From: Gammaproteobacteria bacterium
GTDB taxonomy: Bacteria; Pseudomonadota; Gammaproteobacteria; JAURND01
Assembly: GCA_035546635.1 (NCBI GenBank)
Contig: DASZWJ010000019.1
Span: forward strand, 229,386 to 293,385
Direction: 5' to 3'
Length of the DNA: 64,000 nucleotides
Shown here: positions 3,712-59,048 of the stretch, one piece after another
How the letters are laid out: each line of letters starts with the position of its first letter
Numbering within the stretch: position 1 is the stretch's first letter
The notes under the pieces: model-generated
Database searches by the model: none
What the model was told of the DNA's origin: nothing
Seen by the model: the letters and a program-made list of their open reading frames with translations, nothing else
Position numbers and translations under genes: made by a program

Positions 3712-5280
3712 ATGGAAACGGAAGCCTCATCTTCATCCTTTAAATCATCTTTACAGCTTGTCCAACCTCAAGATACCATTGCAGCCGAATCGACTACAGC
3801 GGCTCAACACCAACTACTTGAAATCACTACCCACGTTGCGGCTCAGCTTCGCCAATTGCTAGGTCGACCTTTACGCGTAGTGGATTTAGGATGTGATGAT
3901 GGTTTATTCAGCCTGCAACTTGCCTGCGAGGGCGATGAAGTCATAGGTGCTGACTCAAATCAAGCACACATCTTAACCTGCCAAGCACGGGCCAAAGAAC
4001 TTGGCCTCACCACAACTTTTGTGACAGCCGACATCAGTAATTGGCAGAATTGTGGGAAATCATTTGACCTGGCGCTGGCATTTAATTTGACGCAGTTATC
4101 TGATTTGACGAAGATAGAGAAAACTGTACAAGCTTTATCACAGCGGGCAACCATCGCACTGATTACATCGTCTTGGCAGAATACACAAGAGAATACTTCT
4201 AATCCATTACCAGCTAACCCCTTTCAATTACTTCGACCCTATGCCTATCTTGAAAAATTAACAGAATACCCATCTAGCGTCACTGACATTAAAAACCCTG
4301 TTTTTTTCTGCAGCAATGCCTATTGGTACGCCAAGGGGGCTATGCAACGTTTTGATTATTGGACAGAACAATCACGCCAACGCTTTGAAAAAGAAGTGCA
4401 TAATAATATTTATCCGCATCGGCAGACACGTCGTTACTATTTTAATGATACCCGGATGTTGAAGCATTATCGCTTAACTGGGGATAAAATTAAAAGCAAC
4501 CGCAATGAAATTCAAGCTGAAATTAATTTTATTAACAATAATATGGATAAAATTAACACACTACCACGTATGCAAGCTTACAATATAAGCGAAGATGATG
4601 CCTGGATGTTGCGAGAAAAATTTTCTGGTATTAGATTAAGTTGTGCCATTTCTGACGGCATGGATTATGACCCTAAAAAAATTCTGGTCAGCATTTTACA
4701 GCAGTTGGCCTTATTTGAGCGTCATGGTTTTTATCAGAATGATCTTAGGCCGTGGAATTTTATTTTATCTGAGAATGATACGATATTTTTAATCGATTAT
4801 GGCACTGTCAGCCAAACACCCCGCGATTCATTATCCAGAAAAAAAAGTGTATTCATGAGCTTTTTAGTGTTGGCTCATGAAATTATTTATAGAAAAGTGC
4901 TACTTGTCAGGCAATTCAGCCCAGTTTTTATAAGCCCAAGATATTTTCCTGACAATTATGCCACGTGGTTATACCATCTACTTAGTACTGATTTTAGTCA
5001 GTGGAGTTTTGCATTATTTTTAGAATTGCTTGACCGCAAAGAATTACCCGATAGACATTCTAGAACAGCAGCTAATAATATGCTGTTGTGGCTTGACGAA
5101 ATAGATCAGCACTTGGGCAATCCTAAATTTAAAATGCAGCATTTTCAAAAGTATTTTATTAAAAAATTACATCTGGAAGTTACTAAAGCTGGTTGGAAAA
5201 GCAAGCTTACTACCTTTGTAAATAAGTTTTTACTATTATTGCCGCGCTTTAACCAAAAACCTAATCCTGAGCTTGAGTAG
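3712..5280 (+). CDS. Bifunctional SAM-dependent methyltransferase / eukaryotic-like kinase fusion protein, WbdD-like architecture (paralogue A)
   Basis: The N-terminus carries methyltransferase motif I (LRVVDLGCDDG ... DEVIGAD) and a post-I acidic residue. The C-terminus carries a kinase catalytic loop HGFYQNDLRPWNF (HxDxxxxN) and a DFG-like IDYG. The RBS AGGGAG lies 9 bp upstream. It shares about 35-40% identity, at the same domain positions, with the ORF at 55198-56775. Confidence 0.6.
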   Translation: METEASSSSFKSSLQLVQPQDTIAAESTTAAQHQLLEITTHVAAQLRQLLGRPLRVVDLGCDDGLFSLQLACEGDEVIGADSNQAHILTCQARAKELGLTTTFVTADISNWQNCGKSFDLALAFNLTQLSDLTKIEKTVQALSQRATIALITSSWQNTQENTSNPLPANPFQLLRPYAYLEKLTEYPSSVTDIKNPVFFCSNAYWYAKGAMQRFDYWTEQSRQRFEKEVHNNIYPHRQTRRYYFNDTRMLKHYRLTGDKIKSNRNEIQAEINFINNNMDKINTLPRMQAYNISEDDAWMLREKFSGIRLSCAISDGMDYDPKKILVSILQQLALFERHGFYQNDLRPWNFILSENDTIFLIDYGTVSQTPRDSLSRKKSVFMSFLVLAHEIIYRKVLLVRQFSPVFISPRYFPDNYATWLYHLLSTDFSQWSFALFLELLDRKELPDRHSRTAANNMLLWLDEIDQHLGNPKFKMQHFQKYFIKKLHLEVTKAGWKSKLTTFVNKFLLLLPRFNQKPNPELE

Positions 5281-5302
5281 AAGGTTTCTCTTCGCAAAAC
5301 AC

Positions 5303-5360
5303 TTAACCTCTCCCATCCCACAAGGGGATTCCCTTCGGTCATAGACGGGAGAGGTTAAAG
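5303..5360. repeat. REP-like palindromic element, family B (CTTAACCTCTCCC ... loop CCACAAGGGGATTCCCTTCGGTCATA ... GGGAGAGGTTAAAG)
   Basis: 16-bp near-perfect inverted repeat with a structured loop. A second copy with the same loop sequence lies at 26111-26186. Confidence 0.7.
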
Positions 5361-23174: not shown

Positions 23175-24182
23175 TCAAAAAGGAGCAGGTATCAGCCCCA
23201 CTGCATCATGCACGCGCTGTAGAATTCTTTGCGCACGTGCTTGCGCTGTTTCTGCGCCACTTCGCAATATATCCTGTAATTTATCAATATCTGCGCGTAA
23301 TTCGTAATAACGTTCGCGCATTGGTCGCAAGTGTTCAATAATTGCCTCAGCCAGATCATTTTTAAATTTACCATAACCGCTGCCCTGATAAGCTTGTTCT
23401 AATTGCGCAATGCTTTGGTGAGTGGTCAATGCAAACAAAGTCAATAAATTGGCAACGCCCGGTTTAGCATCTACATCGTAACGTATCTCATTGCCGGAAT
23501 CGGTTACCGCGCGTTTTAATTTAGTCCGAATCATATCTTCTGAATCTAATAGCGCAATATAATTATGCTGATTGGCATCTGATTTAGACATTTTTTTGGT
23601 CGGTTCTTGCAAACTCATAATGCGTGCACCCTGAGGTGGAATATAGGGTTCAGGAATAGTAAAAATTTCACCATAAAGACTATTGAAACGTAAAGCTACA
23701 TCTCGAGTTAATTCCAAATGCTGCTTCTGATCTTCTCCAACGGGAACTCGATGCGCACCATATACTAAAATATCAGCCGCCATTAACACTGGATAATCAA
23801 ATAGCCCGACATTAATATTGCTTTCATGCTGCTTAGATTTATCTTTAAACTGCGTCATACGGTTGAGTTCACCCAGATAAGTAAAGCAGTTTAAGATCCA
23901 AGCTAGGCGGGTATGTGCCGGCACATGCGATTGTGCAAACAACACATTCTTTTCAGGATCTATGCCACAGGCAATATATAAAGCCAACACATCATAGCAA
24001 CGCTCCAATAATTGTTCAGGATCTTGGCGGACGGTTAAGGTGTGCAGGTCAGCCAGCATAAACAGGCAATCATATTCCTCCTGCATCTTGACCCAATTAG
24101 AGATGGCGCCTGTGTAATGGCCGATAGTGAGCTGACCTGAAGGTTGAATTCCACTTAGCAAAACTGGCTTTGATAGAGTCAT
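23175..24182 (-). CDS. trpS: Tryptophan--tRNA ligase
   Basis: Class I aaRS HIGH-type motif (TIGHYTGA) and KMSKS present. The start MTLSKPVLLSGIQPSG aligns with the E. coli TrpS N-terminus. Confidence 0.92.
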   Translation of the reverse strand: MTLSKPVLLSGIQPSGQLTIGHYTGAISNWVKMQEEYDCLFMLADLHTLTVRQDPEQLLERCYDVLALYIACGIDPEKNVLFAQSHVPAHTRLAWILNCFTYLGELNRMTQFKDKSKQHESNINVGLFDYPVLMAADILVYGAHRVPVGEDQKQHLELTRDVALRFNSLYGEIFTIPEPYIPPQGARIMSLQEPTKKMSKSDANQHNYIALLDSEDMIRTKLKRAVTDSGNEIRYDVDAKPGVANLLTLFALTTHQSIAQLEQAYQGSGYGKFKNDLAEAIIEHLRPMRERYYELRADIDKLQDILRSGAETAQARAQRILQRVHDAVGLIPAPF

Positions 24183-24344
24183 AAAGTTATCCATATAGAT
24201 TGATTGTTAGTAATTTACATATAATTTTGAATAAATTTAAATATTTGCAGAATTTTATTTAATGTATGAGCTTCAAGGTACTGAAATCTGTACTATATTT
24301 TAACGAAGACTAATGGATATTTCCTATAAGTGAGGATAGAAAAA

Positions 24345-24536
24345 ATGACCAGGATATTCTGCATCTTATGTATAACAGGGTTGCTCTATGGATGCACCTA
24401 CTCACCACCACCACCTTATCTCATGGATTATAATAACTATTATTATACGAGCTCTTATGGGGCCTATGAATACACCTATCCTATAGGTTATGATGATAGT
24501 TATTACGTTAAAAATAGTGGAGTAATTCCTTATTAA
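24345..24536 (+). CDS. Small Tyr-rich putative lipoprotein
   Basis: Signal peptide followed by a lipobox-like LLYG-C (MTRIFCILCITGLLYGC). The mature part is about 25% Tyr (…YNNYYYTSSYGAYEYTYPIGYDDSYYV…). Preceded by RBS GAGGA. Confidence 0.4.
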   Translation: MTRIFCILCITGLLYGCTYSPPPPYLMDYNNYYYTSSYGAYEYTYPIGYDDSYYVKNSGVIPY

Positions 24537-24647
24537 AAAGGGTAGGGTAAGCGAAAAACATAATTTTTTCTGAACCGAAAATTTTTAACTAATTTTAAAC
24601 AATAATATAATCTCGGTCTTCAATAAACTTTGGTGAAGAAAAAATAT

Positions 24648-26084
24648 ATGCTTATTACCCCCTCTCGAAAAAATTGGTATCGACTTTTATTAATCATGGT
24701 ATTTTTTGCGTTTCTTAGCGCATTCTTCATGATTTTCCTTCCGCATATTAAAGAGGAAGGTCGGTATACCATTGCCTCCATGGAAATGTTTTACAATCAT
24801 TACTATTGGCAACCGACCACGTATGGCGCACATTATCGAAGACCGCCCTTTTTCAATTGGCTAACACTGCCTATTATGCACTGGATAGGTGCCCAAAATG
24901 TACTGGTTGCTTCGCGTATTGTGGCGGCTAGCGGCACTGTGCTTTTAGCCTTGATGTTGTGGTTCTTCAGTCTCCACTTATTTAAAAACAAAGTCTTCGC
25001 GATTTTTAGTGTTGCCGTATTATTTTCTGGAGATTTTCTATTAGGCAAGGCCTGGGTGGCTTACCCTGATACTTGGTTTGCGTTTTTCACGTTTACTGCC
25101 ATTAGCTGCATGTGGATAAGCATTAAAGAACAACGTCCTTTATTTTGGATTCCTATCCCTTTTGTATTATTCGCAGCGCTACTCACCAAAGCGTTCACCT
25201 GTTATATATTTTATGCTACCGCATTATTGGTAGTAACCATAGGGTTAGGATGGTCTAAAAACTGGCGTTATCTACTTAAACCGGCCAGCATTTTAGCCCA
25301 TGCATTAGTGATTATATTACCCCTCACATGGTTTTTGCTGCCTGAATCGACTGGTTTAGCCGGTATGTTAGGAGATGTTTCGGGTTCAATGGCACAACCT
25401 GAGCAATTCACCTGGTTAGGTTATTTTCTAAAAATTCTGTCAACGCCGTTTAGTTTCATTTATTTGCTGCTCCCCATTGATATACTGGTGCTTTATTGTT
25501 TATATCGCTATAAAAAATATCCTACTATCCAGCCGGTCACCCGTTTGGATGGACAATCCATTAAATTATTAATCTGGATTATAGTCTTAAGCATATTACC
25601 TTATTGGTTTTCGACAGCGCATCTGTTAAATCCACGTTATTTATTTCCCTTATTACCCATGATAGCGATAGTGCTAGCCTATTGTGTTTGGCGGGCTGGG
25701 GAAAAAATGGTGGGTTTTGCCATTTTAATATTAATATTTGAGTTGTTCTTGAAGTGTATTTTGGTCATTTTAATTAGCCACCCTGGGAAGTTTACCTCTG
25801 TAGATTTTTCGCTTGACCAAATTGCAAATGATGCCCTCAAGCAAAGTCAGTCATATGCTAATTTAATCTATGTTAGCGATTTCGATGATGGGGGATATGG
25901 GGTGAATATTGCCTCTAAAATTAATATAATCCGTTGGCCTCAACCACCTTTAACGACTGCGCCTGAGCCACTGACCAAAGGTTGTGTGCTTAGCCAGGTG
26001 AATAGTACTAAGTGGGGGGTAGTGCCCAAGGTATATCATGTAAATAACGGGCGGGGTAAGCCTATTTATGTTTATTGCAAATAG
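24648..26084 (+). CDS. GT-C fold membrane glycosyltransferase, ArnT/PMT-like (GT83/GT39 family); candidate lipid A or envelope glycan modifier
   Basis: Polytopic membrane protein. The first periplasmic loop (EEGRYTIASMEMFYNHYYWQPTTYGAHYRRPPFFNWL) resembles the ArnT/PMT D/ExRYAEIAREM…KPPL.YW signature. It lies directly upstream of msbA-lpxK. The ATG at 24648 or the TTG at 24630 could be the start. Confidence 0.6.
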   Translation: MLITPSRKNWYRLLLIMVFFAFLSAFFMIFLPHIKEEGRYTIASMEMFYNHYYWQPTTYGAHYRRPPFFNWLTLPIMHWIGAQNVLVASRIVAASGTVLLALMLWFFSLHLFKNKVFAIFSVAVLFSGDFLLGKAWVAYPDTWFAFFTFTAISCMWISIKEQRPLFWIPIPFVLFAALLTKAFTCYIFYATALLVVTIGLGWSKNWRYLLKPASILAHALVIILPLTWFLLPESTGLAGMLGDVSGSMAQPEQFTWLGYFLKILSTPFSFIYLLLPIDILVLYCLYRYKKYPTIQPVTRLDGQSIKLLIWIIVLSILPYWFSTAHLLNPRYLFPLLPMIAIVLAYCVWRAGEKMVGFAILILIFELFLKCILVILISHPGKFTSVDFSLDQIANDALKQSQSYANLIYVSDFDDGGYGVNIASKINIIRWPQPPLTTAPEPLTKGCVLSQVNSTKWGVVPKVYHVNNGRGKPIYVYCK

Positions 26085-26110
26085 AGGGGGTATGTGAATA
26101 CCCTATCATT

Positions 26111-26186
26111 AAGCAGGCACTTCCCTTCTCCCATCCCGCAAGGGGATTCCCTTCGGTCACAGACGGGAGAAGGGAAGTGCCTGCTT
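26111..26186. repeat. REP-like palindromic element, family B, second copy
   Basis: AAGCAGGCACTTCCCTTCTCCC…loop CCGCAAGGGGATTCCCTTCGGTCACA…GGGAGAAGGGAAGTGCCTGCTT. It has a 22-bp inverted repeat, and the loop is nearly identical to 5303-5360. Confidence 0.7.
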
Positions 26187-26320
26187 ATGGAATGATATGA
26201 TGAATACTTGACCCCTCAGCCCACCTAGACTTGAAAGTGCTCCTTATGCTAAACTCCCGTTTTTATATGATCTGCTTTTCTTTACCCAGTATGCGGCAAT
26301 TGCGGCGAGCTTAATCACTT

Positions 26321-28120
26321 ATGTCGATTCCCTTTTTTGCACTGTTTTCGTCTAATCCCTCAAGCCTACTCAACCTATACAAAAGACTATTAACTTCAGT
26401 CAAACCCTACCGCTTGATCTTTTTACTGGGCATTCTAGGTACGGCTGCATCTTCTGGCATTGACGCTGGTCTGGCTTGGTTGATTAAGCCCATCATTAAT
26501 CACGGCCTAGTGGATAAAAACTTCCATTTTATCCGCATACTGCCGTTTGTGGTTATCCTGATCTTCATTCTGCGTGGTTTTGCCGTATTTATGTCCACTT
26601 ATTACATCGCCAAGGTCGGTAAAAGTGTCGTTATGGACTTCCGCCAGCAAATGTTTGCCCATATGCTCAGGTTACCAGCCAGTTTTTATGATACCCAATC
26701 CTCGGGGCAATTGCTTTCTCGCTTAATCTTTAATGTAGAACAGGTCACGGAAGCGACCACCAATGCCTTGATGATTATGGTGCAAGATGGGGTATTAGCG
26801 ATAGGTCTCATTGTCGTCATGATTTCCTTAAGTTGGCAGATGACCTTGATGTTTATGGTGATTCTACCGATGTTGAGTATCATGATTCGCTATACCAGCA
26901 AAAGAATGCGTCGGCTGAGTTTTAGCGTGCAAAAAGCGATGGGGGAAATTAGCCATATTGCCGAAGAGAGCTTTGAAGGTTACCGCGTGATTCGTACCTT
27001 TGGCGGTGAGGATTATGAAAATAACAAATTTGTCAAAGCTACTAAAGATAATCGTAGACGTGAAATGAAGATTGTCGCCACTAATGCCATCGGCACGGCT
27101 ACCACCCAAATTATTGTCTCGTTTGCAATTGCGCTCATTTTATTTCTAGCTACTTTGCCTCAAGTAGACATTTCACCTGGCACCTTTGCGGCATTAATAG
27201 CCTCCATGTTCGCATTATTACGACCCATACGGCGCATCACGCAAATCAATAACTCCATACAAAAGGGTGTTGCCGGCGCACAAAGTATTTTTGAAATACT
27301 CGATATTGAACCCGAAAAAGATACAGGGACTTTGACCGTACAGCGGGTTAAAGGAGCGATTGAATACCGCGACTTGCGCTTTACTTATCCTCATACTAAA
27401 AAGCAGGTACTGTCAGAAATAAATTTTCATATTAAACCTGGGGAAACTGTGGCCCTGGTCGGCCGTTCTGGCAGCGGCAAAACAACTTTAGTGAGTCTAT
27501 TGCCGCGGTTTTATGAGTTAGAAAAAGGCAGTATTTTAATTGATGGTGTAGACATCCGTGAGTTTCGTCTAGCTGATTTACGCAACCAGTTTGCATTAGT
27601 ATCGCAGCATGTCACTTTATTTAATGACACGATAGCGCGCAATATTGGCTATGGGCGACTCAGCGAGGTCAGTGAAGAGGATATTATACGTGCCGCTGAA
27701 GCAGCCCATGCCATGGATTTTATCCGTGAATTTCCTCAAGGCTTAAATACCCTGATTGGTGAAAATGGCGTGCTGTTATCGGGTGGTCAGCGGCAACGTA
27801 TCGCCATTGCTAGAGCGTTATTAAAAAATTCACCTATTTTAATTCTCGATGAAGCAACCTCATCCTTGGATACAGAATCCGAGCGACGGATTCAAGCAGC
27901 ACTCGATGACCTCATGCGTCATCGCACCACACTGGTGATAGCGCATCGTTTGTCGACTATAGAAAAAGCTGATCGCATTTTAGTGGTGGAGAAAGGCCGG
28001 ATTGTTGAAACCGGCACGCACGCTGAATTAGTGCGCAACAATGGCCATTATGCCTATTTACATGCACTGCAGTTCAAAGACGAGCCTGCCACCAGTGATG
28101 CTGAAGTTGTGGTCATATGA
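26321..28120 (+). CDS. msbA: Lipid A export ATP-binding/permease protein MsbA
   Basis: Six TM helices plus an NBD with Walker A GRSGSGKTT, signature LSGGQRQR and Walker B ILILDEATS. The conserved msbA-lpxK pairing is present. Confidence 0.88.
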   Translation: MSIPFFALFSSNPSSLLNLYKRLLTSVKPYRLIFLLGILGTAASSGIDAGLAWLIKPIINHGLVDKNFHFIRILPFVVILIFILRGFAVFMSTYYIAKVGKSVVMDFRQQMFAHMLRLPASFYDTQSSGQLLSRLIFNVEQVTEATTNALMIMVQDGVLAIGLIVVMISLSWQMTLMFMVILPMLSIMIRYTSKRMRRLSFSVQKAMGEISHIAEESFEGYRVIRTFGGEDYENNKFVKATKDNRRREMKIVATNAIGTATTQIIVSFAIALILFLATLPQVDISPGTFAALIASMFALLRPIRRITQINNSIQKGVAGAQSIFEILDIEPEKDTGTLTVQRVKGAIEYRDLRFTYPHTKKQVLSEINFHIKPGETVALVGRSGSGKTTLVSLLPRFYELEKGSILIDGVDIREFRLADLRNQFALVSQHVTLFNDTIARNIGYGRLSEVSEEDIIRAAEAAHAMDFIREFPQGLNTLIGENGVLLSGGQRQRIAIARALLKNSPILILDEATSSLDTESERRIQAALDDLMRHRTTLVIAHRLSTIEKADRILVVEKGRIVETGTHAELVRNNGHYAYLHALQFKDEPATSDAEVVVI

Positions 28121-29100
28121 ATACCTGGGTGAAGGCCTGGTATGACCGTCACCCTTGGCTCTATGCATTAACACCATTTGCCGCTATTTACTGCAGTGCA
28201 GCACAAATCAAACGTTACAGTTATCGAATTGGCCTAAAAAAAACCACGCAATTTGCAGTGCCTGTGATTGTAATCGGCAATGTTACCGTAGGTGGAACCG
28301 GTAAAACCCCATTAGTGATTGCTTTAGCGAAAATCCTCCTTGAACACGGATATAAACCTGGGATAGTCAGTCGTGGTTACGGTGGTCAAGCCGCAACGAC
28401 ACCACAATGGGTAACAGGAAATAGCAACCCTCTGGAAACTGGGGATGAGCCATTATTAATCGCACGGCATACCCTTTGCCCTTTAGTCATTGCCAAACAA
28501 CGTGTCTCGGCAATCACTACTTTACTCAATCATTACCCTTGCGATGTCATACTCAGCGATGATGGTCTGCAGCATTATGCTATGGGAAGGAGCATAGAAA
28601 TTGCTGTCATAGATGGGGTGCGGCGTTTTGGTAATGGTCTTTGCCTGCCAGCCGGTCCGTTACGTGAGCCCTTATCGCGCCTAAAACAAGTGGATTTTAA
28701 GGTGACTCAAGGCAACCCAGAACTGGGTGAATGGGCGATGCAATTGCTGCCGGGAACCATTTATAATCTCGCAAATCCAGAACAAAAATTGCATCCTCAT
28801 GAACATCTACCTCCTGTACACGCCGTAGCCGGCATAGGCAATCCGCAACGCTTTTTTACTCAGCTTGAACAACTGGGATTTACTGTTATTGCGCATCCAT
28901 TTCCCGATCATTATCATTTCCAGCCAGGTGATATTGATTTTGGTAAAAATGCCATCACCATTATGACTGAAAAAGATGCGGTGAAATGTGAAAAATTTGC
29001 GGATGAGCGGCATTGGTGTTTGCCAGTGACTGCACAATGTGATGCGGGTTTTATTAATTTACTGTTGGAAAAATTAGGCTGTCATCCTGGGCGTAAGTGA
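28117..29100 (+). CDS. lpxK: Tetraacyldisaccharide 4'-kinase LpxK
   Basis: P-loop VIVIGNVTVGGTGKTP, about 327 aa. Overlaps the msbA stop (ATGA). Confidence 0.9.
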   Translation: MNTWVKAWYDRHPWLYALTPFAAIYCSAAQIKRYSYRIGLKKTTQFAVPVIVIGNVTVGGTGKTPLVIALAKILLEHGYKPGIVSRGYGGQAATTPQWVTGNSNPLETGDEPLLIARHTLCPLVIAKQRVSAITTLLNHYPCDVILSDDGLQHYAMGRSIEIAVIDGVRRFGNGLCLPAGPLREPLSRLKQVDFKVTQGNPELGEWAMQLLPGTIYNLANPEQKLHPHEHLPPVHAVAGIGNPQRFFTQLEQLGFTVIAHPFPDHYHFQPGDIDFGKNAITIMTEKDAVKCEKFADERHWCLPVTAQCDAGFINLLLEKLGCHPGRK

Positions 29101-29122: not shown

Positions 29123-30334
29123 ATGACTGCTATAAAATTTCAAAATACTAAATCACTTTCTACTCAGCGCATTAATCTCATTCTATGGACTATACTTTTA
29201 CTCTATCCCTTACTTGGCATGGGCATTGATTTAATTGCCCCCTCTTTACCTGCAATTAGTCATGATTTGGGAATATCAAACGCTATCTCAAAAAACTTAA
29301 TTGCACTTTACCTGATTGGATATGCGGCAGGAAATTTTTTAATTGGATTTTTATCTGATGCACTAGGACGGCGTAAATTGCTAATGGTTAGTTTATTTGT
29401 ATTTACCTTAACCAGTCTTCTACCCATTTTTTTACCTACGACTATGACCTTATTGATTTCGCGGTTGTTACAAGGTTTTTCGTTAGCAGGTTTTGGAGTC
29501 ATAGCGCGTGCTAGTGTCGCAGATTTACTGACTGCAGATAAACTCAAACAAGTCGCTGTATTGACAGCTACTATGTGGGGAATAGGACCGATTGTTGGCC
29601 CTTTTATTGGCGGGTATTTACAATATTATTTTGGTTGGCAAGCTTGTTTCTATTTCTTTTCGCTCTACAGTTTCTTGGGGTTGGCGGCTTGCATTTTTAT
29701 CGTGCCAGAAACACATCACAACCGCCAACCATTTAACTTGCAACAAATTAAACTAAATTTTATTACTATTACCTCTCATCCGCTATTTATGGGGATGGTC
29801 ATTATTATGGGTACTAATTATTCATTATTAATTGTGTTTAACGCACTCGGTCCGTTTTTAATTCAAAATAGTCTTGGATTTTCGCCACTGTATTTTGGTC
29901 ATATCGCGTTATATATGGGACTAGCTTTTTTAATTGGCACTTATGTGTGTCGTCGTTTGATTAAAGTTTTCCAACCAGAAAAAATAATATTTTCAGGGAT
30001 TGGTATCTTTCTTTTGGTTGCCGCAATGGGTGTGATTTTGGCTTATGTTGCTGGAAAAAATATGACGGTGGTTGTTATTCCAAGTCTGTTGCTTTATTTT
30101 GCTTGCGGCATTCTTTATCCGGCTAGCATGGCCAGGGGGTTGGCGATATTTCAGCATTTAGCGGGTAGCAGTGCAGCGGTCATGAATCTATTAAATCTAT
30201 TAATCACTAGTCTCACTGCGTTCGCTATGAGCTTGATTAATCCGACTACAGCGCTGCCTATGGCCTGTATTTATCTAGTGCTTTTATTATTTTGCGCTTT
30301 GGCTTATTGGCTACTAGTTCATAAAAATGCTTAG
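29123..30334 (+). CDS. MFS transporter (12-TM, drug/metabolite exporter type)
   Basis: MFS motif A-like GFLSDALGRRKLLM between TM2 and TM3, and 12 predicted hydrophobic segments. Confidence 0.78.
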   Translation: MTAIKFQNTKSLSTQRINLILWTILLLYPLLGMGIDLIAPSLPAISHDLGISNAISKNLIALYLIGYAAGNFLIGFLSDALGRRKLLMVSLFVFTLTSLLPIFLPTTMTLLISRLLQGFSLAGFGVIARASVADLLTADKLKQVAVLTATMWGIGPIVGPFIGGYLQYYFGWQACFYFFSLYSFLGLAACIFIVPETHHNRQPFNLQQIKLNFITITSHPLFMGMVIIMGTNYSLLIVFNALGPFLIQNSLGFSPLYFGHIALYMGLAFLIGTYVCRRLIKVFQPEKIIFSGIGIFLLVAAMGVILAYVAGKNMTVVVIPSLLLYFACGILYPASMARGLAIFQHLAGSSAAVMNLLNLLITSLTAFAMSLINPTTALPMACIYLVLLLFCALAYWLLVHKNA

Positions 30335-56775: not shown

Positions 56776-57284
56776 GGATTTTGCTCCTAAAATGTAACAG
56801 TCATATGAAAGAGGAAAGCAAGTTTCCCCTGAAACAGTGAGGAAGTTTTTACAAATCTTCTTGGATTGCCATGCTCTTAAAAAGAAGATGAACCATCCCT
56901 TTAGATTACAATGGTTTATTGTATGATATAAGTTTTCTTTAAGGAAATTAAAATTACAGTTTTTAGCTATCTTTAAATTTTTAATCGGTATGTAATCCTA
57001 TGACTTATTAAAATGTCACAATATTTTCAAATTTAATGTAACTTTAATTAGGAGTTGCAATGCTTTCTTTTCGTGTTCATCCTAGTAAAAGCAAAGGATA
57101 ACCCTATGAAAGTGCCATTGAGCATTGCTAAAATCCACATACCGCTGTATAATAAAAACTCATTTTTAACCCTCTCTAGGACGATTCAAATGATATTGCT
57201 TGGTTAAATCGCTCTCAGTAAGACCGGTCAATTCATTGCTATTTGGCTGGAATTTTATACATCGATTTTTTACCAGGTCATATT

Positions 57285-59048
57285 ATGAATCTGCCTACAT
57301 CAAATTTTGCCTTTATTTTTTACTTCGTCCGTCAACAATGGTTGCGGTTTCTAGCCTTATTCGCCATATCAATGGTTTGGGCGGTTAACGATGCGATGTT
57401 GCCTTATTTCTTGAAACGGATAGTCAATACTCTGCACGACTACACCGGCCCTCCACAAGGTGTCTATTTGGCAGTCAAGGGCATATTAATTATCTTACTG
57501 ATATTCTGGATCGTGACAGAAATATTAAATCGCATTCAAGGTATTAACCAAATTTATACTTTCCCACGTTTTCGCGCTAACATTCGCGCCTCGGTATTTA
57601 ATTACGTAAAATCACATTCTCATGAATATTTTTCCAACCAATTTGCCGGAAATCTCGCCAAAAAGCTGGCTGACTTACCGCACAGCTGTCAAAACATTAT
57701 GGAGATTATTTCCTTTCAATTTATTACAGCAACTGTAGGCATCAGCATGGTGTTGACCATGATGTGGCTTACCAAACCACTGTTTGCTGTGATTCTATTA
57801 ATTTGGCTCAGTTTTCATTTGGGATTAACCATCCTTATTTTACGTCGCGCTAACGTACTATATGAAACCCATGCTGAATCCGTTTCCGTATTAAGCGGAA
57901 AAATTGTCGACATATTTACGAATATTTTAAATGTGCGTCTATTCGCGCGTAGTCGATATGAATCCGAATATTTGCAACAATTCCAACAAGATGAAATCAC
58001 TAAAGCCAGAAAAGCCATGTGGCTAATTGAGTTAATGCGTATGGGTCTTGGAATAAATGGATTATTCCTCATATTCGGTATGATTTTTACTTTACTCTAC
58101 GGCTGGGCGCACGGTTGGGTAACGCTGGGCGATTTTACTCAAGTGAGTATGCAGTCATTCTGGTTATTAGGTTTGATTTGGTTCGTCAGTTTTCAAATGA
58201 CTGTGTTTGTGCGGGAGACCGGCACCATTAGCGATGCATTGAGTTTAATTAAAAAAAGCCACGATCTATCGGACACTGAAAATGCCCATCCTATTGCCAT
58301 TCCTTGCGGTCAAATCATTTTTAATCAGGTCACTTTTGGTTACAAAAGAAATCGTCCGATATTTCAAAATTTGAATCTTGTCATTCAACCTGGAGAGAAA
58401 ATTGGTTTAGTTGGATTTTCCGGCTCAGGAAAGTCTACTCTGGTGAATCTCATCTTGCGTTTCTACGACTTACAATCTGGTCAGATTTTAATTGATGGTC
58501 AAGATATCGCTAAAGTCAGTCAAGAATCTTTACGCGCTCAAATCGCCATGATTCCACAAGATCCCGCATTGTTTCATCGCAGCTTAATGGAAAATATCCG
58601 CTACGGCCGTTTGGATGCAACAGACGAAGAAGTCTTTAAAGCCTCAGAGCTGGCACACTGCCATGAGTTCATTGAAAAATTGGATTGTGACTATGAGTCT
58701 CTAGTCGGAGAACGCGGCATTAAATTATCCGGTGGTCAACGACAACGCATTGCCATCGCTCGCGCCATCTTAAAAAATGCGCCGATTCTAATTTTAGACG
58801 AGGCAACTTCTTCACTGGATTCAGTTACAGAAAAGCTGATTCAAGAAAGCCTGGAGCATTTAATGCAGGGTAGAACTACGATTGTAATTGCACACCGTTT
58901 ATCTACATTAGCTGATATGGATAGAATTTTAGTCTTTCATAAAGGAGAAATCGTCGAACAGGGTACAATTGCAAACTTACTGAATGTAAATGGCCACTTT
59001 GCGAAATTATGGCATATGCAATCCGAAGGATTTTTGCCAGAGAGTTGA
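57285..59048 (+). CDS. ABC exporter, fused permease-ATPase (MsbA/multidrug type), second copy in the window
   Basis: Six TM helices plus an NBD with Walker A GFSGSGKST, signature LSGGQRQR and Walker B ILILDEATS. The start is set at MNLPTSNF (57285). Confidence 0.85.
   Translation: MNLPTSNFAFIFYFVRQQWLRFLALFAISMVWAVNDAMLPYFLKRIVNTLHDYTGPPQGVYLAVKGILIILLIFWIVTEILNRIQGINQIYTFPRFRANIRASVFNYVKSHSHEYFSNQFAGNLAKKLADLPHSCQNIMEIISFQFITATVGISMVLTMMWLTKPLFAVILLIWLSFHLGLTILILRRANVLYETHAESVSVLSGKIVDIFTNILNVRLFARSRYESEYLQQFQQDEITKARKAMWLIELMRMGLGINGLFLIFGMIFTLLYGWAHGWVTLGDFTQVSMQSFWLLGLIWFVSFQMTVFVRETGTISDALSLIKKSHDLSDTENAHPIAIPCGQIIFNQVTFGYKRNRPIFQNLNLVIQPGEKIGLVGFSGSGKSTLVNLILRFYDLQSGQILIDGQDIAKVSQESLRAQIAMIPQDPALFHRSLMENIRYGRLDATDEEVFKASELAHCHEFIEKLDCDYESLVGERGIKLSGGQRQRIAIARAILKNAPILILDEATSSLDSVTEKLIQESLEHLMQGRTTIVIAHRLSTLADMDRILVFHKGEIVEQGTIANLLNVNGHFAKLWHMQSEGFLPES

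Follow-up and report, generated by a model that had tools for sequence, protein, structure and literature searches.

A predicted, highly divergent ArnT-like GT-C glycosyltransferase encoded in a variable gene slot upstream of msbA-lpxK in a gammaproteobacterial genome

The window analyzed here is a 64-kb (64,000-nucleotide) stretch of gammaproteobacterial DNA. The part of it described below carries, on one strand, genes for a predicted small tyrosine-rich lipoprotein, a GT-C glycosyltransferase, the lipid A flippase MsbA, and the tetraacyldisaccharide 4'-kinase LpxK, with a REP-like hairpin between the GT-C gene and msbA (Table 1). The msbA stop and the lpxK start overlap by 4 nt. A preliminary description of this DNA had placed the GT-C gene on the same strand as msbA and 236 nt before it, and these coordinates are borne out. 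An alternative TTG start for the GT-C gene is present at 24630, but the ATG at 24648 agrees with the N-termini of homologues. The GC content of the gene (0.402, versus a gene mean of 0.42 +/- 0.03) gives no compositional signal of horizontal transfer, and its GC3 is also normal for the window.

Table 1. Genes, protein features, and repeat element of the locus, in window positions
Feature	Position	Strand	Basis
Small Tyr-rich lipoprotein, 63 aa	24345..24536	+	ORF; NCBI call P0017; predicted signal peptide and lipobox-like LYGC
GT-C glycosyltransferase	24648..26084	+	Intact ORF, 478 aa
First periplasmic loop motif, residues 36-71	24753..24860	+	Residue-by-residue hhalign to ArnT
D129 and D141, periplasmic ends of TM3 and TM4	25032..25070	+	hhalign, topology, conservation
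K181, aligned with Lys of ArnT 'TKG' motif	25188..25190	+	hhalign; K in 125/126
R330-Y331, nearly invariant	25635..25640	+	R 125/126, Y 122/126
C-terminal periplasmic alpha/beta domain, residues 380-478	25785..26081	+	AF2 model, topology, conservation
REP-like imperfect palindrome, 26-nt arms and 26-nt apical part	26110..26187		RNA fold, repeat comparison
msbA, lipid A flippase	26321..28120	+	TIGR02203, 759 bits (cut-off 602)
lpxK, tetraacyldisaccharide 4'-kinase	28117..29100	+	PF02606, E 1.6e-105; TIGR00682, 243 bits

The lipoprotein is present as described, except that the share of tyrosine in its mature region, previously put at about one-quarter, was slightly low. The mature protein has 14 tyrosines in 47 residues (30%), while tyrosine makes up 24% of the whole protein. 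Compared with the pattern [LVI][ASTVI][GAS]C, the lipobox L-Y-G-C has an atypical Tyr at -2; the orthologue in the closest relative of the window (L095, in which TrpS is 86% identical and DNA is 72 to 78% identical) has a canonical L-S-G-C, and three lipoproteins of similar composition (L009, P0016, and P0018) have L-A-G-C. By analogy with the E. coli rule, the Thr at +2 suggests outer-membrane sorting. The mature N-terminus is rich in Ser, Thr, and Pro (C-T-Y-S-P-P-P-P). Pfam and NCBIfam scans with this protein gave zero matches, even at E <= 10, and its family has only five members among 5.8 billion proteins. The L095 orthologue (L095:7009-7203) has 75% DNA identity over 131 alignable nt, and the two proteins share the conserved tail DDSYY[VI]KNSG[VI]IPY. 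The Tyr-rich lipoprotein is a stable resident of the locus, a point that the preliminary description had missed. In three of the five genomes that encode it, the lipoprotein gene adjoins a gene for a GT-C enzyme, drawn from two separate GT-C families. That so rare a lipoprotein recurs beside GT-C genes leaves room for a minority reading, in which the lipoprotein is the acceptor.

The GT-C protein has zero matches in Pfam and NCBIfam scans, even at E <= 10; thus neither PF13231 (PMT_2) nor PF02366 (PMT) is matched at that threshold, and the NCBIfam ArnT equivalog is not matched either. A profile of the GT-C family searched against PDB sequences also gave 0 matches at E <= 10, and homology to ArnT was found only by profile-profile and fold comparison. 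When the family profile was compared with E. coli ArnT by hhalign, residues 17 to 187 aligned with a probability of 95.3% and an E value of 2.3e-8, with the motif residues in register. Ten of 15 relatives of the GT-C protein match PMT_2 at E <= 0.01 (best E, 5.6e-11) and 1 of the 15 matches PMT, so membership of the window protein in PMT_2/PMT is transitive only. The NCBIfam ArnT model PRK13279 is matched at E <= 0.01 by 5 of the 15, reaching only E 8.6e-10. The AF2 model of the window protein (pLDDT 81, pTM 0.85) superposes on solved GT-C(A) enzymes, and Foldseek searches with this model matched ArnT at E 1.6e-6 with TM scores of 0.59 to 0.62. Judged by these comparisons of sequence and predicted fold, the 478-aa protein is a genuine but very divergent ArnT relative.

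The predicted topology has ~11 transmembrane (TM) helices, with the N-terminus inside and a periplasmic C-terminal alpha/beta domain. The positive-inside rule places loop 1 in the periplasm, and in this topology the conserved acidic and basic residues are on the periplasmic side. The ArnT/PMT-like loop signature that had been reported for this protein is present, with EEGRYTIASMEM corresponding to residues 36 to 47 and YRRPPFFNWL to residues 63 to 72. The full loop-1 motif, E36-E37-G-R-Y40-T ... E46-M47 ... Y63-x-R65-P66-P67-x-x-N-W71, corresponds by hhalign to D-E-x-R-Y-A and Y-F-E-K-P in ArnT; the RYA and YFEKP motifs of ArnT contain a functional Tyr and a functional Lys (PMC5377068). The first-loop acidic residues, on which the ArnT-like reading had been made to depend, are retained and aligned to those of ArnT, with E36-E37 directly after TM1. 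Among 126 family representatives, E36 and E37 are each conserved in 125, E46 in 120, and P67 and W71 each in 118. The acidic pair of the subfamily is E-E, not D-E, in 125 of the 126, and it aligns to the D-E of ArnT. Residues R39-Y40-T41 are at the position of RYA, where 106 of 126 representatives have Tyr or Phe. YFEKP is replaced by Y-R-R-P-P, in which the Lys has become Arg (R in 104 representatives, K in 14) and the Glu is not conserved. D141 (D in 122, E in 4) is aligned to the Asp of 'VLDP', the second one conserved in ArnT; D129 is D in 104 and E in 9. The R330-Y331 pair has no sequence-level alignment to the Arg/Tyr of ArnT and is, by analogy, a candidate for polyprenyl-phosphate ligands. 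The close clade keeps C446 and C477, which could form a disulfide in the C-terminal domain. These observations support assigning the window protein to the GT-C enzymes of the ArnT/PMT clan, with no loss of the acidic residues in loop 1.

Among characterized enzymes, ArnT (GT83; E. coli b2257; C. metallidurans 5EZM/5F15), the undecaprenyl-phosphate-L-Ara4N:lipid A transferase, shares the most with the window protein: the elements [DE]-E-x-R-Y, E-M, and Y-x-[KR]-P in register, the second Asp (D141), the 'TK' Lys (K181), the N-in topology, and the periplasmic C-terminal domain. In addition, distant members of the subfamily are in arn-like operons beside msbA. Unlike ArnT, to which it is 14% identical, the window protein has 478 aa rather than 550, ~11 predicted TM helices rather than 13, E-E rather than D-E, and Arg for the YFEKP Lys, with the YFEKP Glu lost (position 64 is variable); it lacks an NCBIfam or Pfam ArnT match and has no arnBCADEF genes nearby. 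The LPS transferases of PMT_2 (PF13231), which include the Rhizobium RgtA-D GalA transferases, Francisella FlmK, and Bordetella LgmB, act in the periplasm, where they add sugars from polyprenyl-phosphate carriers to lipid A or core. The window protein resembles them in that its relatives match PF13231 and are paired with ArnC-like GT2 genes, but it is itself below the PF13231 threshold and has the E-E signature, and the likeness is one of family description, not of demonstrated orthology. Compared with bacterial PMT (GT39), the differences are the missing PF02366 match, the Gram-negative host, and the LPS-gene neighborhoods found across the family, and ArnT outscores every PMT structure in the fold search. 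In the logic of three-component Gtr systems, GtrA is the flippase, GtrB the polyprenyl-phosphate sugar synthase, and a GT-C protein the transferase (PMC11127046). Full GT-C/GtrA/GT2 operons of this kind are found in Rickettsiella and Gallionella members of the subfamily, whereas the GT-C gene stands alone in the window and in the closest clade, and the neighbors point toward inner core, not O-antigen.

The subfamily comprises ~180 clusters at 50% identity, from iron-oxidizing betaproteobacteria, from Rickettsiella, Aquirickettsiella, and Mycoavidus symbionts, and from the uncultured gammaproteobacterial lineage of the window. TrpS of the window has its closest named homologues in Solimonas (Nevskiales) at an identity of only 63 to 65%, so the lineage can be placed no more finely than uncultured Gammaproteobacteria. 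A metagenome scan with a close-clade profile gave one locus only (L091). Recurrent neighbors across the subfamily are ArnC/GtrB-like GT2 genes, gtrA, waaA, heptosyltransferase genes, waaL, and true msbA. Within 5 kb of the GT-C gene, 51 of 91 loci have an ArnC-like GT2, 17 have GT9 heptosyltransferase-family genes, 13 have waaA, and 8 have WaaL. True msbA orthologues are 2 to 7 kb upstream in 11 loci, and in 10 of these they are 46 to 48% identical over most of their length; in L080 the match is in two pieces. In Rickettsiella (L027), GT-C, GtrA, and GT2 form an overlapping operon. The Gallionella loci (L004/L006) have the arrangement gtrA-GT2-GT-C, in which the GT2 shares 27% identity with E. 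coli ArnC along its entire length (E 4e-35); WaaL, MBOAT, and multiple GT2/GT4 genes of the sort that typify outer core or O-antigen regions are also present. A Burkholderiales locus (L078) has an arn-like set, msbA-GT2-methyltransferase-DegT aminotransferase-MBOAT-GT-C, and only such distant members have a DegT aminotransferase plus a GT2 beside the GT-C gene. In the closest clade, GT9 is immediately upstream of GT-C (L001, L008, L011, and L015), and LPS neighbors are absent from close-clade subclade A (L003, L012, L013, and L091). Adjacent GT2/GtrA genes are generally missing from the closest clade, where it may be usual for the donor gene to be unlinked.

The preliminary description had proposed a lipid A or core glycosylation step coupled to export. 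The acceptor half of this proposal is the better founded: gene neighborhoods across the wider family make LPS (lipid A or core) the best-supported acceptor. The GT-C gene is absent from the trpS-msbA gap of L095, which contains the lipoprotein gene, an IS110 transposase gene, and a gene for a soluble 480-aa protein, with msbA and lpxK kept. More distant relatives (L097/L098 and L099) have neither the lipoprotein nor the GT-C gene in this slot. Based on these slot contents, GT-C is an accessory gene in a variable slot; its adjacency to msbA is incidental, with no fixed partnership with msbA-lpxK, and the claimed coupling to export is not supported by the placement. The 480-aa protein of L095 and a 527-aa protein in L100, both encoded beside trpS, are soluble and unrelated to GT-C. 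The sole tblastn match to GT-C in L095 covers 26 aa at E 0.19; its strand is wrong and its translation unrelated, and we regard it as chance rather than as a remnant. A search for the cognate polyprenyl-phosphate sugar synthase, which the preliminary description had called for, found no donor synthase by tblastn in the 64-kb window. GtrA, ArnC-like GT2, WaaA, GT9, MBOAT, and WaaL are all without a match there, and with no ArnC-like GT2 or flippase in the window there is no arnBCADEF association.

With moderate confidence, we favor the view that the protein is an inner-membrane, GT-C(A)-fold, ArnT-like polyprenyl-phosphate-sugar transferase with a periplasmic active site that acts on the LPS inner core or lipid A. 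It is most likely an optional LPS-decorating enzyme, and its chemistry is expected to be conventional. Fold, homology, residue conservation, the logic of the topology, and gene neighborhoods across the family are shown here, and the donor type and acceptor are inferred; a lipid-phosphate-linked sugar donor is indirectly suggested by the ArnC-like GT2 beside so many homologues, with none in the window. By analogy with ArnT, the E36-E37 pair and D141 would activate the acceptor and position the sugar, and R65, K181, and R330-Y331 would bind the phosphate of the donor polyprenyl-phosphate-sugar. An ArnC/GtrB-like GT2 would make the donor and a GtrA-like protein would flip it, with both genes located elsewhere in the genome, and the sugar would be transferred to LPS (inner core or lipid A) after MsbA flips core-lipid A to the periplasmic leaflet.

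The neighborhoods do not distinguish among lipid A, core, and O-antigen as the acceptor, and the same chemistry could serve another glycan: the repeat units of O-antigen or capsule (seroconversion of the Gtr type), periplasmic glucans, or a different glycolipid of the envelope. We consider this unlikely, although it is the strongest of the alternatives. Classical three-component GtrA/GtrB/GT-C systems modify O-antigen (PMC11127046), the Gallionella loci have the WaaL, MBOAT, and GT2/GT4 genes of outer core or O-antigen regions, and the GT-C gene is accessory and variably present, like seroconversion genes. However, it is inner-core and lipid A genes (waaA, GT9, and msbA) that recur most among the neighbors, not wzx/wzy or O-antigen exporters of the ABC type, and ArnT is the nearest match among both solved structures and profiles.

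The recurrent Tyr-rich lipoprotein neighbor is a possible protein acceptor and is counted against the LPS reading. In the resulting two-gene protein glycosylation cassette, GT-C would act in the periplasm to glycosylate the neighboring lipoprotein, which is rich in Tyr, Ser, Thr, and Pro; this can be likened to the O-mannosylation of actinobacterial lipoproteins by PMT. The lipoprotein is beside a homologous GT-C in two lineages (the window and L009/L010) in which flanks and relative orientation differ; in L009/L010 it is divergent from GT-C and 16 bp away. In L093 the gene divergent from it encodes a GT87 protein (PF09594, E 1.1e-8), a member of another GT-C family. No further such lipoprotein is present in 1.6 Mb of related loci, and the five-member family and the Ser/Thr/Pro-rich mature N-terminus are further points in favor. 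TfpW offers a precedent for a GT-C whose gene adjoins that of its protein substrate: it is reported to modify the pilin encoded beside the TfpW gene (bioRxiv 10.1101/2020.04.19.049825). Several observations argue in the other direction. The lipoprotein has no adjacent GT-C in L095, at the same locus, or in L092, whose backbone is that of L009, and ~90 other family loci have LPS genes and no such lipoprotein. Moreover, the homology between the window-type and L009-type lipoproteins is largely compositional (tblastn E 2e-5 with composition correction off), and the sites may be variable-gene hotspots, since the trpS-side slot of relatives contains IS110 and soluble effector-like proteins. We consider such a cassette quite improbable, and we are more doubtful still of its specific form in which GT-Cs are interchangeable, with an ArnT-like one in the window and in L009 and a GT87 one in L093, and modify a short, very Tyr-rich lipopeptide of the outer membrane, perhaps at Tyr as well as at Ser/Thr. 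If true, an ArnT-like enzyme would here do for a Gram-negative bacterium what PMT does in the mannosylation of actinobacterial lipoproteins, in a lineage of uncultured gammaproteobacteria that is probably host associated. That GT-C is an orphan or decaying gene, inactive or non-catalytic for want of a cognate donor pathway, is very unlikely: no donor-pathway gene is within 64 kb, the nearest relative lacks GT-C, and the L008 homologue is broken into pieces, but the window ORF is intact, keeps every residue that is nearly invariant across the 126 representatives, has GC and GC3 normal for the window, and belongs to a clade in which an unlinked donor may be usual.

For the preferred reading, modification of lipid A or inner core could change outer-membrane charge, cationic-peptide resistance, and innate immune recognition. 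The E-E acidic pair, in place of D-E, is diagnostic for this ArnT-like subfamily, and the failure of Pfam and NCBIfam models to detect the window protein and some of its relatives is an annotation gap.

The inverted repeat reported between GT-C and msbA (26111-26186) is real, with arms at 26110-26135 and 26162-26187 that are 96% complementary (RNA fold, -61 kcal/mol; z, -10). It starts 26 nt past the GT-C stop codon and has no U-tract. It had been taken to argue for independent promoters, but REP elements are commonly inside operons in E. coli, and a consensus scan found no plus-strand promoter-like site between the hairpin and msbA; the hairpin carries no information on promoters. Over 24150-26400, promoter-like sites are fewer than in shuffled sequence and there is no plus-strand terminator, so the scan is uninformative on operon structure. 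An Rfam search with the hairpin found no family, and a relaxed threshold gave only chance matches to miRNA-precursor hairpins. A second intergenic copy (5299-5359) shares the 44-nt apical core at 95% identity but differs in the outer stem; these two are the only copies in the 64-kb window, in which none is expected by chance.

Searched alone against Pfam and NCBIfam, the 478-aa GT-C protein gives no match even at an E value of ≤10, and comparison of its family profile with PDB sequences also found none. Despite the lack of a direct family match, homology to ArnT/PMT_2 enzymes is firm. Among 15 relatives recovered with a word-indexed search, PF13231 (PMT_2) was matched by 10 (best E value, 5.6e-11), and the NCBIfam ArnT model was matched weakly by 5. 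The family profile aligns with Escherichia coli ArnT at 95.3% probability (E value, 2.3e-8; residues 17 to 187), placing E36-E37-G-R39-Y40 opposite D-E-T-R-Y, E46-M47 opposite E-M, Y63-R64-R65-P66 opposite Y-F-E-K-P, D141 opposite the D of VLDP, and K181 opposite the K of TKG. ArnT function requires a Tyr and a Lys within the RYA and YFEKP motifs (PMC5377068). With the motif residues in register, this alignment supports the ArnT/PMT-like assignment made in the preliminary description, in which the loop sequences quoted are residues 36 to 47 and 63 to 72. Hydropathy and a structure model give ~11 transmembrane helices with the N terminus inside, a topology in which loop 1, D129, D141, K181, and the C-terminal alpha/beta domain (residues 380 to 478) are predicted to be periplasmic. 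The protein is a new, poorly annotated example of an already known kind of enzyme.

When 1.84 billion representatives were searched exhaustively with a profile, 180 proteins scored at an E value of ≤1e-30, 1,215 at ≤1e-10, and 4,118 at ≤1e-3: a small full-length subfamily that merges gradually into the PMT_2/ArnT continuum. Among 126 full-length representatives, E36, E37, R90, K181, and R330 are each conserved in 125, Y331 in 122, E46 in 120, M47 in 119, and P67 and W71 in 118; position 141 is D in 122 and E in 4, and position 65 is R in 104, K in 14, and H in 7. The signature of the family is an E-E pair replacing the usual D-E. Loss of the acidic loop residues had been named as grounds for rejecting the assignment, and the near-invariance of E36 and E37 answers that test, as they have not been lost. 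Family members come from Gallionella, Sideroxydans, Nitrosomonadales, Burkholderiales, Acidithiobacillus, and Nitrospirota and also in Mycoavidus, Rickettsiella, and Aquirickettsiella. The closest clade (43 to 55% identity) is rare and uncultured, and the window GT-C is a lone basal branch inside it.

Features of the window
Feature	Position	Strand	Basis
ORF preceding second hairpin copy	3712-5280		ORF
Second hairpin copy	5299-5359
TPP riboswitch	14810-14916	+	RF00059, 74 bits
First gene of thiamine cluster	14998-16743		ORF
Small lipoprotein, 63 aa	24345-24536	+	ORF
GT-C, 478 aa	24648-26084	+	ORF
REP-like hairpin	26110-26187		palindrome
msbA	26321-28120	+	TIGR02203, 759 bits
lpxK	28117-29100	+	PF02606, E 1.6e-105
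Bcr/CflA-type MFS efflux gene	29123-30334	+
Second MsbA-like ABC exporter	57243-59048	+	tblastn

The window ORF check and the Pfam/NCBIfam matches for msbA and lpxK confirm the ORFs and features described earlier. The ATG start of the GT-C gene agrees with homologue N termini, with an upstream TTG at 24630 as a possible alternative; 236 nt separate the end of this ORF from msbA, which overlaps lpxK by 4 nt. In the second exporter, only the ATPase half aligned to msbA (52% identity). The riboswitch lies ~80 nt 5' of the thiamine cluster, and the L095 ORF syntenic to the first gene of that cluster is ThiC.

Syntenic regions of relatives were fetched with TrpS as the handle. In the closest relative, L095, TrpS is 86% identical to that of the window, and DNA identity is 72 to 78% across nudC, sbcB, trpS, msbA-lpxK, and the lipoprotein gene and 66% across the phosphopantetheinyl transferase gene. 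The trpS/msbA gap of L095 contains the lipoprotein orthologue, and neither a GT-C nor a GT-C remnant was found there; this slot (L095:5487-9968) holds an IS110-family transposase, an AHSA1-domain gene, and, on the opposite strand, a soluble protein of 480 aa that matches no Pfam family. In L097 and L098 (TrpS, 73% identical), msbA is divergent from AHSA1-trpS and the slot has no lipoprotein and no GT-C; L099 is similar, and L100 has a different soluble protein beside trpS. The slot is a hotspot for variable genes, and since its contents differ among relatives and L095 lacks the GT-C, we conclude that the GT-C is accessory and occupies a position of fluid gene content. The significance earlier attached to adjacency to msbA is not borne out, because the GT-C is missing from the slot in L095, L097, L098, and L099. 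L095 likewise has no counterpart of the MFS gene that directly follows lpxK in the window and carries a 110-aa ORF at the syntenic position; this MFS gene is thus another accessory neighbor of msbA-lpxK, besides the GT-C.

Taken on its own, adjacency to msbA in this one genome carries little weight, but the family-wide association with LPS genes does carry weight. When 91 GT-C loci were compared by tblastn, genes within 5 kb of the GT-C included an ArnC-like GT2 in 51 loci, MBOAT in 31, a GT9 heptosyltransferase family member in 17, WaaA in 13, GtrA in 10, and WaaL in 8. The GT-C, GtrA, and GT2 genes overlap in Rickettsiella (L027), and in Gallionella waaA is divergent from gtrA-GT2-GT-C-MBOAT-x-waaL, the GT2 being similar to E. 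coli ArnC along its full length (E value, 4e-35). A true msbA orthologue lies 2 to 7 kb upstream of the GT-C in 11 loci (in 10 of them, 46 to 48% identity along most of its length; in L080, two pieces). The Burkholderiales locus L078 has an arn-like layout (msbA, GT2, x, methyltransferase, DegT aminotransferase, MBOAT, x, GT-C). These neighborhoods agree with the three-component logic described for periplasmic glycosylation (PMC11127046). No donor-pathway genes were found within the 64 kb of the window. Judged from gene neighborhoods, the likeliest acceptor would be LPS inner core or lipid A, which upholds the LPS direction of the preliminary description. Within the closest clade, one GT-C paralogue directly follows a GT9 gene (L001, L008, L011, and L015) and the other has no LPS neighbor (L003, L012, L013, and L091). 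Two MAGs, MFD10064.bin.1.32 (L011/L012) and MFD04463.bin.2.67 (L013/L015), carry one paralogue of each kind. Many genes in L003:800-7800 and L008:8001-9500 are broken into short adjacent ORFs (exonuclease VII large subunit is in three pieces, and GT-C P0010 ends early at 310 aa), which could reflect long-read frameshift errors or pseudogenisation.

The two 26-nt arms of the hairpin between the GT-C gene and msbA show 96% complementarity (fold, -61 kcal/mol; z, -10). The second copy shares a 44-nt apical core (95% identical) and has a different outer stem sequence in which pairing is kept, so that these could be structured elements rather than plain repeats. Both sit just after a stop codon (~20 nt in the second copy) between codirectional genes. 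As a palindrome that recurs in the window, the hairpin fits the description of a REP-like element; Rfam gave only chance matches to it. It lacks a U-tract, and a consensus scan from it to msbA found no plus-strand terminator and no promoter-like site. REP elements in E. coli are often inside operons. For these reasons the hairpin is no argument for the independent promoters previously deduced from it.

The Tyr-rich lipoprotein has a signal peptide, a lipobox-like LYGC, and a mature part of 47 aa, 14 of them Tyr (30%). Searching 5.8 billion proteins with a profile recovered it and two others (P0016 and P0018); with the protein of L009/L010 and the orthologue from L095 added, the family has five members. 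Window and L095 proteins clearly share PPPP, YDNYYYT[ST]SYG, and DDSYY[VI]KNSG[VI]IPY. The link to the L009-type protein (tblastn E value, 2e-5 with composition correction off) is mostly a matter of similar composition, a lipobox, and an initial C-x-Y-x-P-x-P. In L009 and L010 the lipoprotein gene is divergent from a homologous GT-C, 16 bp away, and in L093 P0016 is divergent from a GT87/DUF2029-type membrane protein (L093:3-707, minus strand; PF09594; E value, 1.1e-8), a different GT-C family at the position filled in L009 by the ArnT-like GT-C. Across 1.6 Mb of related loci, no further comparable lipoprotein was found. Pairing in three of five cases exceeds chance expectation, yet it is not obligatory: the lipoprotein lacks a GT-C neighbor in L095 and also in L092, whose ABC2/Nudix backbone matches that of L009. 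There are two explanations: the lipoprotein could serve as acceptor or partner, which is improbable, or the two sites could be hotspots at which surface genes vary. Eukaryote-like Ser/Thr kinase fragments and a 1,119-aa ankyrin-repeat protein are encoded in relatives (L092:32-1045, L003:16776-17425, and L099:12841-16200) and hint at an association with eukaryotic hosts for the lineages that have a close-clade GT-C or the lipoprotein.
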